Positions 53,628-61,206 of a stretch of DNA of 64,000 nt are shown one piece after another. The stretch spans positions 64,001-128,000 of the IMG/VR virus record IMGVR_UViG_3300033273_000374, one strand, 5' to 3'. Under the pieces are notes generated by a model. It had not been told where the DNA came from. It was given only the letters and a program-made list of their open reading frames with translations, and ran no database searches. Position 1 is the stretch's first letter. The number at the start of each line of letters is the position of its first letter. The translations under genes were made by a program, and so were the position numbers. The DNA is from a virus (Duplodnaviria; Heunggongvirae; Uroviricota; Caudoviricetes).

Positions 53628-53939
53628 CTATTCAGATGGTTCTAGTCTAACTTCAAGCGGAAACCCTTCGTTACGAGCTCGCAACAGTACCTCTACACCT
53701 TTCTGTTCTGCTATTTCAAATGGCATAACAGCAACAACACCTGCACCACTTTCGCTTATTTCCATTGCTTTATCAACTGCTGGATCTTGCATGTAGTCAA
53801 ATGTTGTCTGTAAAGTATCAATTACAAACTCAAAAGTGGTTTGGTCATCATTGAGATAGATAACCTTGTAATCACTAGGTGGTTGTAATTCAATGCTGCG
53901 TTCTCTTACTTGGGTTTTCGTCAATTCTTGTTGACTCAT
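53628..53939 (-). CDS. clpS: ClpS N-degron adaptor
   Basis: YKVIYLNDDQTTFEFV, G.GVVAV...EIAEQK, FPLEV.LE. Confidence 0.92.
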   Translation of the reverse strand: MSQQELTKTQVRERSIELQPPSDYKVIYLNDDQTTFEFVIDTLQTTFDYMQDPAVDKAMEISESGAGVVAVMPFEIAEQKGVEVLLRARNEGFPLEVRLEPSE

Positions 53940-53955
53940 TTTCACTCCTGTTGTA

Positions 53956-53983
53956 ACAGTAGGAGAGTTTCCCCTCCTACTGT
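53956..53983 (-). terminator. Strong hairpin between hsp20 and clpS (terminator or processing site)
   Basis: ACAGTAGGAG-GGGAAACT-CTCCTACTGT; no clear U-tract. Confidence 0.5.
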
Positions 53984-53995
53984 ACTTATCAAAAA

Positions 53996-54424
53996 TTAGC
54001 CGTCAATTGCAATCTTGCGCGGTTTCTTTTCTTCAGGAATAATACGCTCTAGTGCAATATAGAGCATACCGTTCTCAAGTTTAGCACCGTTAACGACTAC
54101 ATCATCTGCTAGGGTAAAATTGCGCTTGAACTTGCGTTGTGCAATACCACGATGTATAAAGCCAATTTTTTCATCATTGTCTTGTGGTTCGTGAGTGATT
54201 GTTAACACGCCTTCTGCAACTTCAATTTCCAAGTCTTCCAGTTTTACACCTGCTAGTGCAATTTCAATTTGGAAATTGTTACCGTCTTTTACAATGTTGT
54301 AAGGTGGGTATCCACTGCTGGTGGCTTGATGTTCTAGATAACGATGCATGTTATCAAACATACGATCAAAGCCTACAGCGTAAGGTGTTAGTTTATTGAT
54401 GTCGAGTGAAGTTAATCTTGTCAT
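53996..54424 (-). CDS. ibpA: Small heat-shock protein Hsp20/IbpA
   Basis: GFDRMF, YPPYNI, IEIALAG, HRGIAQRKF, LENGMLYI. Confidence 0.95.
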   Translation of the reverse strand: MTRLTSLDINKLTPYAVGFDRMFDNMHRYLEHQATSSGYPPYNIVKDGNNFQIEIALAGVKLEDLEIEVAEGVLTITHEPQDNDEKIGFIHRGIAQRKFKRNFTLADDVVVNGAKLENGMLYIALERIIPEEKKPRKIAIDG

Positions 54425-54431
54425 TTGTATA

Positions 54432-54449
54432 TCTCCTTATAAAGCAAGA
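54432..54449 (-). promoter_or_regulatory. ROSE-like RNA thermometer hairpin over hsp20 SD
   Basis: TCTTGCT-TTAT-AAGGAGA: U(U/C)GCU opposite AGGA with bulged G. Confidence 0.65.
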
Positions 54450-54547
54450 TTATATGTTTTAGACCCCCTAAGGCAGTCCAGTGTTTAGTGGCTAACCGTT
54501 GACCACTGCGTGTGTATTAAGGCACAACCCTCCAGAAATATTTATCT

Positions 54548-54772
54548 CTATTGATTGTCAATTTGAGCTTTTTTCTTAAGCCAGCGTTTGCGACCTGCTG
54601 CTTTTGCACGTTTACGTTGTTCACTAGGCTTCACATAGTGCGTTCTATCACGCAATTCCTGCAACACGCCTTCGTCTTGTAAACGGCGTTTGAGCTTTCG
54701 CCACGCACGGTTGATGTCGTTGTTGCGAACTTCAACAGTCAACCCTTGCTTTGCTCTTGGTTCTCTAGCCAT
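54548..54772 (-). CDS. rpsU: Ribosomal protein bS21
   Basis: VEVRNNDINRAWRKLKR...GVLQELRDRTHYVKPSEQRKR. Confidence 0.92.
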   Translation of the reverse strand: MAREPRAKQGLTVEVRNNDINRAWRKLKRRLQDEGVLQELRDRTHYVKPSEQRKRAKAAGRKRWLKKKAQIDNQ

Positions 54773-55439: not shown

Positions 55440-57382
55440 GGTTCTGTCTGCTGCACGGCAGCGTCTGCAACTAAATCAGCACCAAAACTGTCTTTTTCTA
55501 CCAGCTGATACTTTTCTGCCATTTTCATAACAACAGCATCGCGACGTTCAATTTCTTTTTCTAACTCGCTAATCTTGTTTAGTAATTCTTCAATGCGTGT
55601 GTGTTGGGCACCTACACCTGCTTCAATTTCATCTATTTTACACTTGTATTGATCACGCTCTGCTTCTGTAGCAACAACTTTATCTATAAGTGTGTCTGAC
55701 TCTTCTTTCATGCTTGCAACAGCAGCCGCTAGTTCATCACGCTCCACAAGTAGTCTATCACGTTCACTGACTATTTCACCGTGCTTGGCAGGATCAACGT
55801 TGGCAAGATTGCCATCCAATAGTTTTTCAATCTCTGCTAGTACCTCATTATGTTTTTGTAGTTCCATTTCTAGTTCCTCTAATCTTGGATCGTTTACCCT
55901 GATAATTTTTTGTTTAGGTTTGTTAAGTCCACGTTCTTGTCTATACCAACTTATGGTCATTGTGCCTGCAAGCACCAGACACACTGCTAATGGATCAAAC
56001 ACTGCAACAATAATCATTATAACCCAACGCACTGCAGTTTCTAATGCATTGCGATCAGCATCTTTGTAAATCAGTTCTGCAATATATTTAACAGGTCCTA
56101 CTTCTGCTTCCAGTGTGCGTTGTGTTGCTTGAAGTTTATATTTTTCATCTACCAACTTGTCTATTTCATTGTTGGCAGTGCGTATGCGCTGTTGCTGTTC
56201 ATCAATGATTGCTTGTGCATCTGCATCCTCACCTACTGTAATTTTACTACGCAATTGTGCAATAAGAGTTTGACTGTTTTGTACCTGCTGATTAGCACTT
56301 TCATTTAGTCTTTTGATTTCTGCTCTTGCATTAATTATGGTTGGCGATTCAGTTGCATTTACTTTTTCAATTTGTGCTAGTATTTCTTTTTTGCGTGTTT
56401 CTATACCAGCAACATCGTCACTGCGTATTTTGTTAATAAGCCCTCTGATGCGATCACGTTCTGTGTTCTGTTGCCCTTCCCATTCAGTGGTGATGCTGGT
56501 CATTTGACTGGCTAATTCACGTAATTTTCTATCATTGCCTTCACGCCATTCGGTGGTCTTCTTTGCAGTGTCAGATCCAAAGATGCCATCGCTCTTGATG
56601 CCTAGTTGTTTTTGGAATTCGCTGATTGCTTGTCTGTTGCCTGCACTTACCAATTGATCTAGTTTTGCAATTTCTGCATTTATCTGATCAACTTGGTTCT
56701 GATATGGTTTTAGTTTAGCAACCAAAGCACTGCGGTCTTTGCCAACTTCTAAAAGTTTGCCTTCATACTCATTGGCTTGTTTTGTTAGTTCAAGTATTTG
56801 TTCGTCTAGTTGTGCTATTTGATCCAAGTAAGGCTGTGCTTTGTTATTATCGTTGGCAGTTGCTTCTTGAATGATTTTGTTTTGTGCTGCAATTAAAGGT
56901 TGGATACGACTGTATGCACTGTCAATTCTGCCTTGTTCTTTGTCTATCTGTGCTTGGATGGTATCGTTGGCATTGCCCTGTGAACTTTCAGCACTTTCAA
57001 TTTTTAGTTCAGCACGTGCAATGTTTGCTTTGTTACGGGCAATTTCACTGTCTATGCGTTCAATCTGACTAGCACCTTCTACGCTGAGTGCAGTTTGTTC
57101 AATGTGTGCTTTTGACAAAAATCCAAACACGCCCATGCTGGTAATAAACATCAACACAATCACAGCCATGGTTAGATAAAATTTGATTATACCAGGTGCT
57201 CGATGCCAGTTTTGGTGTAGCCAAATTGTAGTAAAAATTTTACCTACTTCAAGCACACTGCCCATGAGCACAATAGGCAAAAATGCTGCAGCAAAAATTG
57301 CTACCAGTCCTAGTATACTATAGTAAGCAGCGATAGCACTAATACACAGTGCAACAAGAAGAGTTATAATTCCCAAAAACAT
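55418..57382 (-). CDS. Multi-TM coiled-coil protein with peptidoglycan-binding domain
   Basis: 3 N-terminal TMs, long coiled coils, AISEFQKQLGIKSDGIFGSDT (PG_binding_1-like), late TM VAVFDPLAV. Confidence 0.8.
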   Translation of the reverse strand: MFLGIITLLVALCISAIAAYYSILGLVAIFAAAFLPIVLMGSVLEVGKIFTTIWLHQNWHRAPGIIKFYLTMAVIVLMFITSMGVFGFLSKAHIEQTALSVEGASQIERIDSEIARNKANIARAELKIESAESSQGNANDTIQAQIDKEQGRIDSAYSRIQPLIAAQNKIIQEATANDNNKAQPYLDQIAQLDEQILELTKQANEYEGKLLEVGKDRSALVAKLKPYQNQVDQINAEIAKLDQLVSAGNRQAISEFQKQLGIKSDGIFGSDTAKKTTEWREGNDRKLRELASQMTSITTEWEGQQNTERDRIRGLINKIRSDDVAGIETRKKEILAQIEKVNATESPTIINARAEIKRLNESANQQVQNSQTLIAQLRSKITVGEDADAQAIIDEQQQRIRTANNEIDKLVDEKYKLQATQRTLEAEVGPVKYIAELIYKDADRNALETAVRWVIMIIVAVFDPLAVCLVLAGTMTISWYRQERGLNKPKQKIIRVNDPRLEELEMELQKHNEVLAEIEKLLDGNLANVDPAKHGEIVSERDRLLVERDELAAAVASMKEESDTLIDKVVATEAERDQYKCKIDEIEAGVGAQHTRIEELLNKISELEKEIERRDAVVMKMAEKYQLVEKDSFGADLVADAAVQQTEPKKDNES

Positions 57383-57453
57383 CTGTGTATTATACTACCT
57401 TTTAGACAGGATTGTCAACTAATACTAGATCAAAGAAATACTTTTCACTCATG

Positions 57454-57909
57454 TTATGTCCAAGGACGACCTTGTGTGAGGTTGCCGCTATCGCCTGTGT
57501 TGTCTGTAACAGTGTCACCAACATAGCGTGTTGGCAACAGTGTTCTGTCATGTGTGTTTCCAGTGCGATAGTAAGGCTTTGTTGTATCACCACCGGCAGT
57601 TCGTTTTAATGCTGCAATGTCCAGCATCATAAGTTGACTGCGCTCACGTGTGGTTTGGCTTCTATCTGATGCTACAGTGATAACATCACCTGCTACTATG
57701 CCAGCACTTACTAGTGTAGTACTTGCACTGTCTGTACTATCCGTCACTGAGCCATTTTTATGAATACTAACACGACCGTAGTAGTAACTTTGTAAACCTT
57801 CATCTGCAATAATAGCAGTGCGAAGTTGTGCCATTGTTTGTCCATTGTCAATGGTCAAGTCATTTAACAGGCCTGTTAGACCTTTGTACTTAATCGTGAT
57901 GTTTGCCAC
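57454..57909 (-). CDS. Protein with N-terminal ubiquitin-like domain
   Basis: GTG start; residues 6-39 align gaplessly to ubiquitin 3-36 (10/34 identical by hand). Confidence 0.65.
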   Translation of the reverse strand: MANITIKYKGLTGLLNDLTIDNGQTMAQLRTAIIADEGLQSYYYGRVSIHKNGSVTDSTDSASTTLVSAGIVAGDVITVASDRSQTTRERSQLMMLDIAALKRTAGGDTTKPYYRTGNTHDRTLLPTRYVGDTVTDNTGDSGNLTQGRPWT

Positions 57910-58213
57910 GTTCCCACTCCAATTGTGTTAGTGTGCTGTATAAGCTGTGACTTTGGTCTGTGCGGAGATCCGCTGGATGTTTTGGCCCATTCACACCCCC
58001 ACCTGCATGATCAGTCACAGCATCTATATCAGCATACTTTTCTTCTGGGGTGTTACTGTATTGTTTACCTGCACCACAGCCACAGCCACAATCATCACTG
58101 TGTAGATCTTCTATCTGCTTGAAGTGATTTTCATCAGCAGAATAGCTTTCGCCCTCTGATTGTATCTGGGCTAAAAACTGTTTTAGGTTTTGTAAAAGTT
58201 CTAATCCGTGCAT
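57890..58213 (-). CDS. Hypothetical late protein
   Basis: Start ATG 58213; TATAAATA at 58218-58225. Confidence 0.65.
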   Translation of the reverse strand: MHGLELLQNLKQFLAQIQSEGESYSADENHFKQIEDLHSDDCGCGCGAGKQYSNTPEEKYADIDAVTDHAGGGVNGPKHPADLRTDQSHSLYSTLTQLEWERGKHHD

Positions 58214-58226
58214 AACATATTTATAT

Positions 58227-58265
58227 AAAAAAAATGCAAGGGCGTCCGTCAACAAACCCTTGCAT
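58227..58265 (-). terminator. Intrinsic terminator
   Basis: ATGCAAGGG...CCCTTGCAT followed by a T-run. Confidence 0.8.
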
Positions 58266-58297: not shown

Positions 58298-58537
58298 TTA
58301 TTTTGCTTTATTTTTGAAAATGTGATATAAAATCCAAATAGCAACAAGGCCGATCAAACCCTGCTCACTGAAACCAGCGAGTATACCTTGTACATTGCCA
58401 ATCACTGAAATGTTTGGCCAGAACGGAATGCCCTGTCCATTGAAAAGCACCTCAGCGACAACACCTAAAGCAATAAGTGTAACACCAAGATCTGTAAGGC
58501 CTGCGGCCCAAGTTTTTATTGATTTTATAATATCCAT
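58298..58537 (-). CDS. Small two-TM protein
   Basis: 79 aa hydrophobic; RBS AAGGA. Confidence 0.7.
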   Translation of the reverse strand: MDIIKSIKTWAAGLTDLGVTLIALGVVAEVLFNGQGIPFWPNISVIGNVQGILAGFSEQGLIGLVAIWILYHIFKNKAK

Positions 58538-58675: not shown

Positions 58676-59374
58676 TTATATGCTACTATTATAATAATCT
58701 GCAGTGTATTTTAGCAGTTGACGCATCTCTTTTGAGTTTGGTTCAAACACTTCACGATAGCGTTGGTAGCTTGGTAAATCTTGTATGTGTGCTTCTGGAT
58801 TGCGCAAAACTTGCTCAGGATTGTCAAGGTCTTTGATTTCACTTGCAAGGTCACTGGCGTAAGCCATTAGTTCATGTGGATCAGCAAGGTAATCTCTCAG
58901 CCAGTCTTTTGGGTCACCAGTCTTGGCCATTTTCTCTTGACCTTTTTGATGTCCACTTTTAATAGTGTCTATCTTGTCAAGTCCAATCTTTTTGTATTGG
59001 TTCCAGTGTATGGTTTCGTGTGCCAGCATACGCATCACAATTTGTTTGAATGTTTTAGGACCATAACGTCCTTCTAAATTTTTAGAAAACAAATAAACTT
59101 CCATGAACGGACCTTTTTTGTCAATGCCAGCCATGGCACTGATCCATTCATTTGGGTCTTTTCTTTCTTGGTCACTGGCAATAAACTCTATAGGCAGGTC
59201 ATTGTCATTGTTGCTATTGAGTATTTCTTCAAGCTCAAAGATGTCATCTTCGTCATTGTTGTCTTCTAGATACTCAGCATATTCTTCGATGCTGGCATCA
59301 AGAATGTCCTCTACCTGATTCATAAATTCTACATCAGGTGATACTCTTGCTTCTGTGAGTTCTCTTAATAGCAT
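58676..59374 (-). CDS. Putative Zn-metalloprotease (HExxH)
   Basis: LAHETIHWNQ plus distal HELMAYA; N-terminus MLLRELTE; TAAATA at 59379-59384. Confidence 0.65.
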   Translation of the reverse strand: MLLRELTEARVSPDVEFMNQVEDILDASIEEYAEYLEDNNDEDDIFELEEILNSNNDNDLPIEFIASDQERKDPNEWISAMAGIDKKGPFMEVYLFSKNLEGRYGPKTFKQIVMRMLAHETIHWNQYKKIGLDKIDTIKSGHQKGQEKMAKTGDPKDWLRDYLADPHELMAYASDLASEIKDLDNPEQVLRNPEAHIQDLPSYQRYREVFEPNSKEMRQLLKYTADYYNSSI

Positions 59375-59381
59375 ATGGTAT

Positions 59382-60140
59382 TTATTGCTGCACCGGACTT
59401 GGACCGTTGGTGTCTTTTTGATAAAACCAGCCTGCTAGGCTGTAACGAGGATACGGAGCAATGTAACTCACCGGTGAGATAAAATGTTTGTTAACACGTT
59501 TACCTGCTGTTTCACTGACATCCATTATGGCAAGTCTATTGCCAAAAGGCTCAATGCTGTCACGTATTGTGGTTTCATCTTCATTCATAATACACAACTG
59601 TCCGCCCCAATGCGCTTTCCAGTCTGGATTGAAGTAAAAGATATATGCACACCAACGGGCAGGATCATGGTGTGGATTGAGCCAATGGTCATGTGCATAG
59701 TAACTGTAACTGGGCTGTTTGGTTTCCATGTTGGTAAAGCCTGTGATGTCACTGACAATGTCGTGAAAGGTTACATCAGGTTTGCCCAAACTATAATCCT
59801 CACACACAACCCGAGTAAACTCTGTGCTCAATGGGTACTGTAGTGGAAATACACAGTCTTGTTCTGTGTGTATCCATTTGGCTCTGTGCCAATATCCAAA
59901 CTGCTTGCTGGCTTCCTCTTTGTATTCGTCACGTATAGCATCATGGTCCAGTGTGAGCATTTTTGCTTGTGATATTTTTTGATGGGTGTGCCCAGCACAA
60001 CCCCAATAGCCATAGTCAAGTTTACGCACACTGCGATACAGTTCTTTGATGTAACGTTCTTCTAGTATGTCGTCAACATAACAATAGCGATGTTGTTCAA
60101 AATGTTCTTTTGCACGTTGTACGTTTGCTGTATTAAACAT
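59382..60140 (-). CDS. 2OG-Fe(II) oxygenase (prolyl-hydroxylase-like)
   Basis: HHD...YFNPDW...WGGQL...HFISPV...RYSLAGW. Confidence 0.85.
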   Translation of the reverse strand: MFNTANVQRAKEHFEQHRYCYVDDILEERYIKELYRSVRKLDYGYWGCAGHTHQKISQAKMLTLDHDAIRDEYKEEASKQFGYWHRAKWIHTEQDCVFPLQYPLSTEFTRVVCEDYSLGKPDVTFHDIVSDITGFTNMETKQPSYSYYAHDHWLNPHHDPARWCAYIFYFNPDWKAHWGGQLCIMNEDETTIRDSIEPFGNRLAIMDVSETAGKRVNKHFISPVSYIAPYPRYSLAGWFYQKDTNGPSPVQQ

Positions 60141-60685
60141 CAGTCCCAGCGATAAAAGATATGATCATCAACTTTGGTAACAAGTGTGATGCTTTTGTTC
60201 CATACAGGATCTACATAATCTGCATGATAGTGTGTAGCACCTTCTACAACACCAACATACTTATCTAGCACCAATACTTCAACTGCAACATCTTGGGCTA
60301 GTCGCCATGCAATGTTGTTTTCTTTGTTTGGAATCTCATCGCTTTTGCCATCACAGTACCAACTAAACTGACACTTGTTGCGTACCATAACCAACTTGTT
60401 TGGGTCTTTCCAACTTTGTCTAACAGGTCCTTCATAGATTACTTCGCACACAGTATCTGGAAAACGTGAGTCATACATACGGTTTACCACAACTCGTGCA
60501 ACAGCAATCATGCCTAGTTTGCTTTGATTCTTACTTTCGTGGTATATGTTTAGTGCCATACACCCAAGATCATCGTACACTGGCTCTGTTGTTGCTCTTT
60601 GATTGTTAGCATAGCTGATACCCATGCTTACAGCAACAGCAACAACTGCTATACCACAGTGCTTGACTAGTTTGACAAATCGCAT
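60140..60685 (-). CDS. SleB/CwlJ-family cell-wall hydrolase
   Basis: LALNIYHE-like (MALNIYHES), VVVNR, CQFSWYCDG, GATHYH, DHIFY. Confidence 0.9.
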   Translation of the reverse strand: MRFVKLVKHCGIAVVAVAVSMGISYANNQRATTEPVYDDLGCMALNIYHESKNQSKLGMIAVARVVVNRMYDSRFPDTVCEVIYEGPVRQSWKDPNKLVMVRNKCQFSWYCDGKSDEIPNKENNIAWRLAQDVAVEVLVLDKYVGVVEGATHYHADYVDPVWNKSITLVTKVDDHIFYRWD

Positions 60686-60744
60686 TGTTATTCCTGATAA
60701 AGTTTTGAGCAACTTTAGACAGTATACACTGTTCATTGGATCTG

Positions 60745-61206
60745 TCAACCGTTGATTAGTTTATCATACTCTGCTTTATTGACAACACCTTCGCGCAATA
60801 GTTTTTCTCTATTAACCATGTGCTTTGCTTGAATTTCTTCTTTTGATCCGCCAAAGTATGGTACACAATGGCCTTCTTCTATTAATATTTCTGTTACAAG
60901 ACGCCCATCTGCTACACGGAAATTGCCAAGGATACGTCCAAATTTGCCTTTCACATCCTCGCCACTTTTGTCTTCTGTGGTAATGAGTTTACCGCCTTTT
61001 TTGAGCAGTTCTTTGAGTCTGTTTTTGGCTGCTGTGCCAAACAGTTTCTCTACTTTATCACTGGTGCGTGATTCGGGTGTGTCTATGCCCATAATACGCA
61101 CACGTTCGTCTTTTAACCATATGCCAAAGCCTAGGTCAATGTCCACGTCTACAGTATCTCCGTCTACACATTTTAGTAGAACGACATCATATTCGTTTTG
61201 TTGCAT
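60745..61206 (-). CDS. Thermonuclease (SNase-like)
   Basis: VDGDTV, RVRIMGIDTPE, GKFGRILG. Confidence 0.88.
   Translation of the reverse strand: MQQNEYDVVLLKCVDGDTVDVDIDLGFGIWLKDERVRIMGIDTPESRTSDKVEKLFGTAAKNRLKELLKKGGKLITTEDKSGEDVKGKFGRILGNFRVADGRLVTEILIEEGHCVPYFGGSKEEIQAKHMVNREKLLREGVVNKAEYDKLING

Follow-up and report, generated by a model that had tools for sequence, protein, structure and literature searches.

Ubiquitin-like (Ubl) proteins of the beta-grasp fold are already part of the encounter between phages and bacteria, in which bacterial ubiquitin-like conjugation systems act against phage assembly. In the Bil/Bub and CBASS systems the Ubl is a free protein whose C-terminal glycine is exposed or can be exposed, and its gene lies beside those for E1, E2 and JAB proteins. 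In eukaryotes, integral UBL domains, which stay part of a larger protein, commonly hand partners to degradation machines. To our knowledge, eukaryotic-type ubiquitin-family domains are rare in bacteria and their viruses, and lambda gpI is the one case in which a ubiquitin fold has been reported to control phage assembly. In assembly of the tail tip, the JAB domain of gpK was predicted to remove the N-terminal Ubl domain of gpI; this Ubl domain is ThiS/MoaD-like, runs into a Gly-rich linker with a conserved terminal glycine, and is paired with a gene for a JAB/NlpC-P60 peptidase (PMC1779556). Removal of the gpI Ubl domain by gpK was later reported at a meeting (PMC12908700).

The protein described here is encoded on the minus strand at 57454..57909 of a 64,000-nucleotide stretch of viral DNA, which we call the window and which corresponds to bases 64001-128000 of a 202,913-bp record that is 57% complete by CheckV. 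From the list of open reading frames and the sequence, the gene starts with a GTG at 57909 that has a GGAG 7 nt upstream and is immediately preceded by an in-frame stop, ends with the stop codon at 57454-57456, and encodes 151 residues comprising a Ubl domain and a second module, here called the adaptor, without a lectin domain. It is a real, conserved gene: marine metagenomes contain 177 near homologues that are 60-99% identical to its product, and in an exhaustive search 140 cluster representatives matched the protein at E<1e-3. Two of the related contigs are complete genomes, of 367 and 400 kb, and the window contains matches to T4-type baseplate proteins; the source is therefore taken to be a giant, T4-like aquatic phage. 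From architecture and genomic context, we lean, by a little, toward reading the protein as a lectin-less member of a modular virion adaptor/adhesin family carried by uncultured aquatic phages of roughly 350-400 kb. It is from these two lines of evidence that we infer that the protein is part of the virion, that the adaptor serves in docking and what the Ubl domain does.

A tblastn search of 50,697 cultured-phage records with the protein, two distant relatives and the product of the neighboring gene c2 returned no homologue, and a megablast search with 14 kb of the window found nothing. As no member comes from a cultured phage, the family appears in no virion proteome or structure; the 151-aa protein also has no match in PHROGs. 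Each related contig, including both complete genomes, carries a single copy of the family, and the source genome carries two, the second being a 393-aa LamG fusion. This paralogue (G000:C1:42030-43211, minus strand, which is L002:796-1977, minus strand) is 43% identical over the module, ends it with Arg-Pro-Phe and then continues into LamG; two copies of a phrog_3704-like gene and a radical-SAM-like gene flank it.

The alignment-based AF2 model of the 151-aa protein, built with an alignment of 43 diverse stand-alone homologues (A1), has a pLDDT of 89.5 and a pTM of 0.80; prediction from the single sequence gave a pLDDT of 42, and the alignment-based model is the one used throughout. It lays the protein out as a beta-grasp (residues 1-81), a helix (88-103) and a hairpin (127-136), with the last dozen residues floppy. 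The Ubl domain, delimited as residues 1-82 (57664..57909, minus strand) from the model, the structural comparisons and the profile searches, has strands at residues 3-9, 15-21, 44-51, 54-57 and 76-81 and a helix at residues 26-37. Foldseek against the PDB returned NEDD8, ISG15, ubiquitin and SUMO at E values of about 1e-5 with target-normalised TM-scores of 0.72-0.83. VIA-align, an aligner independent of Foldseek, compared the model with 48,161 chains and matched it to the C-terminal domain of ISG15 with a Z-score of 12.5 and an rmsd of 1.7 Å over 77 residues. No ThiS/MoaD-type protein stands among the top fold matches of either program, and in a viral structure library the next-best structural matches are baculovirus v-ubi and the ubiquitins of giant viruses.

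Profile searches also lead to ubiquitin. Profile A1 searched against the PDB detects mono-ubiquitin at E values of 4e-6 to 1e-5 (about 29 bits, residues 4-77), and the best 60 matches listed are all ubiquitin chains; a profile of the close subfamily only (A3) reaches mono-ubiquitin at an E value of about 0.3. The window protein by itself falls below detection by the Pfam ubiquitin family PF00240 and gives a weak OTU1_UBXL match (E 0.16), and six longer relatives match PF00240 directly, the best at 9e-16. A relative at locus L023 has about 50% identity with eukaryotic ubiquitin (E 4e-13); its adaptor helix directly replaces the ubiquitin tail, without a GG. Thus, the protein belongs to the ubiquitin-like beta-grasp superfamily at the level of fold by AF2, Foldseek and VIA-align, and to the ubiquitin family proper by sequence profile, an assignment carried by A1, the six relatives and the L023 member and not by the window protein alone. 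Taken with the model, these profiles argue that residues 1-82 are a ubiquitin-type beta-grasp and bear more than a chance resemblance to ubiquitin. The original prediction had aligned the protein to ubiquitin without gaps at 10/34 identities, and HMMER with the family profile returns that same alignment; the second stretch that it had matched is strand 5. It had also named structure prediction and profile searches as the checks on its claim, and both agree with it, in that the predicted structure, Foldseek and VIA-align all give a ubiquitin-type fold and A1 finds mono-ubiquitin at 4e-6, the narrower A3 at only about 0.3.

The L023 gene (L023:509-1606) joins its half-ubiquitin-identical N-terminal domain to the same adaptor and a LamG-like domain, and the genes that follow it resemble tail-fibre or decoration genes. 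It is possible, judging from this sequence, that a phage captured a eukaryotic ubiquitin. The family resembles baculovirus v-ubi and the giant-virus ubiquitins in structure, and this one member comes close to ubiquitin in sequence as well. However, those viral ubiquitins keep the GG tail and act in hosts that have a ubiquitin system of their own, whereas the phage protein is without the GG.

The absence of a terminal GG had been noted from the outset, together with an internal KRTAGG, and both observations are correct. A census of relatives extends the first. The Gly or Gly-Gly that follows strand 5 directly in a conjugatable Ubl protein is missing here: in none of 264 Ubl-bearing relatives do the 10 residues that link strand 5 to the adaptor helix include a GG, 202 of the 264 have no glycine at all between the two, and only 3 of 306 relatives end in glycine. 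KRTAGG corresponds to residues 102-107, 25 residues beyond strand 5 and in a loop. We considered it as a processing or cleavage site and rejected it, given that just 133 of 300 relatives have the loop GG and that the same loop hosts whole inserted lectin domains in some of them. Nor are cognate conjugation genes seen. The original prediction had found no E1, E2 or JAB gene in the window, and this extends to the whole 203-kb record, which, incomplete as it is, contains no ThiF, Prok-JAB, JAB or UQ_con; ThiF and Prok-JAB are likewise missing from five other Ubl-bearing contigs, all of these records being incomplete (13-57%). In every Ubl-bearing relative the domain is continuous with the adaptor helix, which, together with the pTM of 0.80, is the arrangement of an integral (type II) UBL. 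On this evidence the Ubl domain is incapable of conjugation, integral and never free.

These features bear directly on the suggestion that the protein is an anti-defence decoy, whose Ubl domain would tie up the E1/E2 of the host, or the deconjugating peptidase, in Bil/Bub systems or CBASS Cap2. The fold is genuinely of ubiquitin type, and a beta-grasp protein in the arena where phage and bacterium meet, facing bacterial Ubl systems that act against phage assembly, invites comparison with Bil/Bub and CBASS Cap2-Cap3. However, the free Ubl, the exposable glycine and the adjacent E1/E2/JAB genes that mark those systems all have no equivalent here, where a C-terminal glycine is a rarity and a GG after strand 5 does not occur. 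Furthermore, the Ubl domain is optional in the family and the invariant positions sit in the adaptor, as described below. We regard a decoy function as very improbable.

The comparison with lambda gpI is closer. Both proteins place an N-terminal ubiquitin fold before a small particle-building domain, and both occur in the context of late morphogenesis genes, which here applies to the relatives. It is therefore worth asking whether the Ubl domain acts as a removable cap that keeps the adaptor assembly-incompetent or its assembly ordered, guarding against premature docking of the Arg-Pro-Trp adaptor until a phage or host protease other than a JAB enzyme clips the domain off after docking, or until it is displaced; the mature particle would then hold the adaptor only. 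Besides the gpI precedent (PMC1779556, PMC12908700), this proposal draws on the dispensability of the Ubl domain, on the existence of complete adaptor-only mini-proteins of 77-91 aa, and on a 232-aa HExxH protein encoded three genes upstream. The details of gpI, however, do not carry over. The phage Ubl domain is of the ubiquitin/NEDD8/ISG15 type rather than the ThiS/MoaD type assigned to gpI (PMC1779556); there is neither a Gly-rich linker nor a GG, with the counts between strand 5 and the helix (0/264 for GG, 202/264 for no glycine) speaking against a cleavable joint; no JAB or Prok-JAB was found in the record or the five other Ubl-bearing contigs, incomplete as these are; there is no match to the Pfam tail-protein-I family; and the conserved neighbors, namely c2, phrog_1645 and a membrane protein, include no peptidase. 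In addition, the pTM of 0.80 suggests that Ubl domain and adaptor form one packed body. A transient cap is therefore an unlikely reading, in our estimate.

The part of the protein that follows the Ubl domain has no described counterpart. It consists of a linker and adaptor helix (residues 83-104, the helix spanning 88-103; 57598..57663, minus strand), defined from alignments A1 and A3, the model and the census and lacking a Gly-Gly after strand 5; a variable surface loop that contains the GG (residues 105-111; 57577..57597, minus strand) and takes up insertions in relatives; and a hairpin with strands at 127-130 and 133-136 that leads to a terminal Arg-Pro-Trp-Thr (residues 112-151; 57457..57576, minus strand), defined in the same way from the alignments, the model and the census. 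In alignment A1 the invariant positions are Gln92, Arg148, Pro149 and Trp150, and Leu96, Ala99, Leu125, Pro126, Tyr129 and Leu144 are near-invariant; every one of these positions is in the C-terminal half. In the census, 171 relatives end within 5 residues of the Arg-Pro-Trp motif, and 131 of these 171 stop a single residue past the Trp, usually Thr or Ser, which is the standard ending of the stand-alone forms. Neither Pfam nor PHROGs holds a counterpart, a profile of the adaptor only gives chance-level matches against the PDB, and the ESM Atlas returns nothing for this part. Residues 86-150 are thus predicted to be an undescribed helix-loop-hairpin module, a fold seen in the full-length model, and the conservation pattern indicates that it is this module, and not the Ubl domain, that defines the family. 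The model, with its pTM of 0.80, suggests that the two pack as one body.

The family is modular. Among the 140 cluster representatives, a Ubl domain with adaptor and C-terminal extension is found in 52, and 42 have the Ubl domain and adaptor alone; the adaptor occurs without the Ubl domain in 19 with an extension and in 14 as the adaptor alone, the latter including the complete 77-91-aa mini-proteins, and 3 have a domain inserted between the adaptor helix and hairpin. The Ubl domain is absent from about one quarter of the clusters. P0248, P0257 and P0258 carry an inserted LamG or other domain in the variable loop (residues 105-111), and in other relatives the inserted domain immediately precedes the final Arg-Pro-Trp or interrupts the Ubl domain ahead of strand 5. 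In 62 long members, the extensions are Laminin_G_3 in 33, GLEYA in 9 and PA14 in 9, with ILEI, pentaxin, DUF285, a T7 tail-fibre N-domain and DUF4183 seen once each. All of these extensions are domains of a binding or adhesin type. Reading the family proteins by eye, we saw no signal peptide or membrane segment, and the sugar-binding domains would therefore meet glycans only on the released particle. The pattern is that of a modular phage adhesin, in which a conserved anchor module is combined with exchangeable binding domains, and such steady linkage to lectin domains and to structural genes also counts against a decoy.

A tree of the shared 150 residues shows at least 3-5 switches between the short and the fused state. 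The window protein falls within a clade of 40 lectin-less clusters with 95% support, and the adjacent clade consists of LamG fusions with 70-74% identity across the region in common. It follows that the short form is not a truncation but a protein that has been maintained. We also looked for a remnant of a lost LamG domain downstream of the gene and dismissed it, as the gap between the stop and the next gene is only 71 nt long and contains a promoter.

The gene lies in a compact transcription unit. Its upstream cistron, c2 (57890..58213, minus strand), identified from synteny and homologues, encodes 107 residues, and its end overlaps the start of the Ubl gene by 20 nt. The c2 product is acidic, has a conserved C-terminal motif around NGPKHPAD, finds nothing in Pfam, PHROG or the ESM Atlas, and has 129 homologues, none with a name. 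In several sub-lineages, c2 is a conserved partner that is translationally coupled to the Ubl/adaptor gene. A T4-type late-promoter box, TATAAATA (58218..58225, minus strand), stands 4 nt before the c2 ATG; four related loci, although their upstream genes differ, have the TATAAATA box in the same place, 4-5 nt ahead of the c2 ATG, and in 12 of 15 further loci TAAATA boxes lie upstream of the adaptor gene or of the small operon that corresponds to this one. Directly upstream of the box, an intrinsic terminator (58226..58265, minus strand; hairpin 58234-58265 plus U8, -16.6 kcal/mol, z -4.4) closes the gene of a 79-aa membrane protein, which lies upstream of c2. This protein (58298-58537, minus strand) has two hydrophobic segments and a holin-like look. 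On the other side, 36 nt past the Ubl stop, is the sigma-70 promoter of the next gene (57389..57418, minus strand; 12/12 consensus, 18-nt spacer), placed 6 nt before the ATG (57380-57382) of a 654-aa membrane/peptidoglycan-binding gene. The order on the minus strand is therefore 79-aa gene, terminator, late box, c2, Ubl gene and a separate sigma-70 promoter, and from the terminator, the late box and the downstream promoter it follows that c2 and the Ubl gene form a two-gene operon of late type. At 4 nt from the c2 ATG, the late box would give rise to an mRNA that is unusual in being nearly leaderless; taken together, the predicted promoters suggest that early- and late-type promoters alike give rise to nearly leaderless mRNAs in this phage. 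Counter-defence proteins are usually made early, and a late-type promoter is thus a further point against the decoy proposal.

The neighborhood of the family differs between lineages. Directly downstream of the gene in relatives is a phrog_1645 virion structural protein (3.5e-112), whose cyanophage homologues sit between terminase genes. A second lineage has the adaptor gene between a gp9/10-like fibre connector and the large terminase, immediately ahead of the latter, and in another lineage the second gene after it encodes a 1683-aa collagen-like tail fibre. The PHROG 'virion structural protein' matches of the long relatives themselves stem from their lectin domains. The downstream protein is one form of a modular family (L007:6460-7860, L003:6460-7314, L038:8427-9242, L040:8424-10250 and L043:1433-3106) that shares an N-terminus of about 45 residues and differs in its C-terminal domains, the 466-aa form being phrog_1645. 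This phrog_1645-type family may, to judge from its position and modular build, be the partner of the adaptor; it is missing from the 203-kb record.

In the window, the neighbors are non-structural: the membrane coiled-coil/peptidoglycan-binding protein, ClpS, Hsp20, bS21, a 2OG oxygenase and a SleB-type hydrolase. ClpS (5.6e-21), Hsp20 (3.6e-17) and bS21 (1.7e-17) are encoded downstream of the Ubl gene (53628-54772, minus strand), and the SleB-type cell-wall hydrolase, the 2OG-Fe(II) oxygenase and an SNase-type nuclease upstream of it (60140-61206, minus strand). Also upstream is the gene of the 232-aa HExxH protein (58676-59374, minus strand), which has an acidic N-terminal half, occurs in loci L010 and L011 as well and belongs to no Pfam family; from its motif it is possibly a small metallopeptidase.

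It could be argued from this setting that the protein works inside the cell as a non-virion adaptor whose Ubl domain binds a host or phage protein, for example in proteostasis together with the neighboring ClpS, Hsp20 and tmRNA genes. The synteny with ClpS, Hsp20 and bS21 is indeed kept in the clade of the window protein, and bringing partners to degradation machines is what eukaryotic integral UBL domains commonly do. However, this synteny is limited to the close clade, the distant relatives being found by terminase and fibre genes; the downstream genes form a transcription unit separate from that of the Ubl gene; and the lectin-type domains of relatives make little sense in the cytoplasm. 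A functional tie to ClpS and Hsp20 was set aside, as the synteny is clade-level only, and we judge an intracellular role to be improbable overall.

The likeness to the eukaryotic type II UBL proteins, such as Rad23, Dsk2, parkin and OASL, nevertheless deserves attention, as it covers the fold, the kinship to ubiquitin, the N-terminal position and the lack of a processing site, which makes the domain a built-in interaction surface. The phage protein differs in being phage-encoded and in its partner modules, which are a new adaptor and lectins. We know of no proteasome and no ubiquitin receptors in the bacteria that such phages infect.

The reading that we prefer is that the gene product is a late-made, non-enzymatic building block of the phage particle with two parts. 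The first, residues 1-82, would be a ubiquitin-family domain that stays part of the protein, being neither attached to other proteins nor cut free at a Gly-Gly. The second, residues 86-150, would dock the protein onto another component of the virion, which could be the capsid surface or else a baseplate/fibre connector; as the adaptor matches nothing in Pfam, PHROGs or the PDB, the docking is something we purely infer. In relatives, the same platform bears LamG, PA14/GLEYA, ILEI and other domains, either after Arg-Pro-Trp or in exposed loops, which would make these proteins modular adhesins or accessory fibres. The Arg-Pro-Trp module would thus serve as the anchor and the Ubl domain as a permanent interaction or spacer domain. 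Given that the clade of the window copy has no lectin, the Ubl domain itself may be the displayed or protein-contacting part. Candidate sites in the virion are an accessory fibre, a baseplate appendage or a Hoc-like capsid decoration. With no export signal, late-type promoters, exchangeable glycan-binding domains and structural neighbors in the family, the virion surface is the simplest reading. Against it weigh the non-structural neighbors in the window, the lack of a phrog_1645 gene in the 203-kb record, the origin of the PHROG matches of long relatives in their lectin domains, the nearly leaderless late mRNA and the absence of the family from the cultured phages searched. As to function, the original prediction had offered either a decoy or counter-defence role or a structural beta-grasp adaptor; architecture and neighbors point to the latter, and the former fares poorly against a domain that has no GG, is dispensable and is always joined to the adaptor.

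Among phage proteins, the closest parallels to a virion adaptor of this kind are T4 Hoc and the swappable tail-fibre and receptor-binding proteins, which likewise combine a conserved anchor with exchangeable, dispensable binding domains. The family shares with Hoc-type adhesins the single copy per genome and the repeated gain and loss of a binding domain. However, we found no relation in sequence or fold to Hoc or to known fibre adaptors, the anchor lies on the N-terminal side and tolerates loop insertions, and the virion site is in this case suggested by context.

If the less probable cap reading were true, this family would be a second, independently evolved instance of a ubiquitin fold controlling phage assembly, this time in T4-like giant phages, and the controlling domain would in some members be half-identical to eukaryotic ubiquitin. 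In either case, the family adds a comparison point for lambda gpI. It also introduces a new, small adaptor domain that has no counterpart in Pfam, PHROGs or the PDB. Because exchangeable sugar-binding modules are attached to this domain, it is a candidate for a marker by which proteins of host or particle adhesion could be recognized when phage genomes are assembled from metagenomes. In a large and abundant family of uncultured aquatic giant phages, which comprises hundreds of clusters, a ubiquitin-type domain has become fixed as a built-in part, without conjugation machinery.
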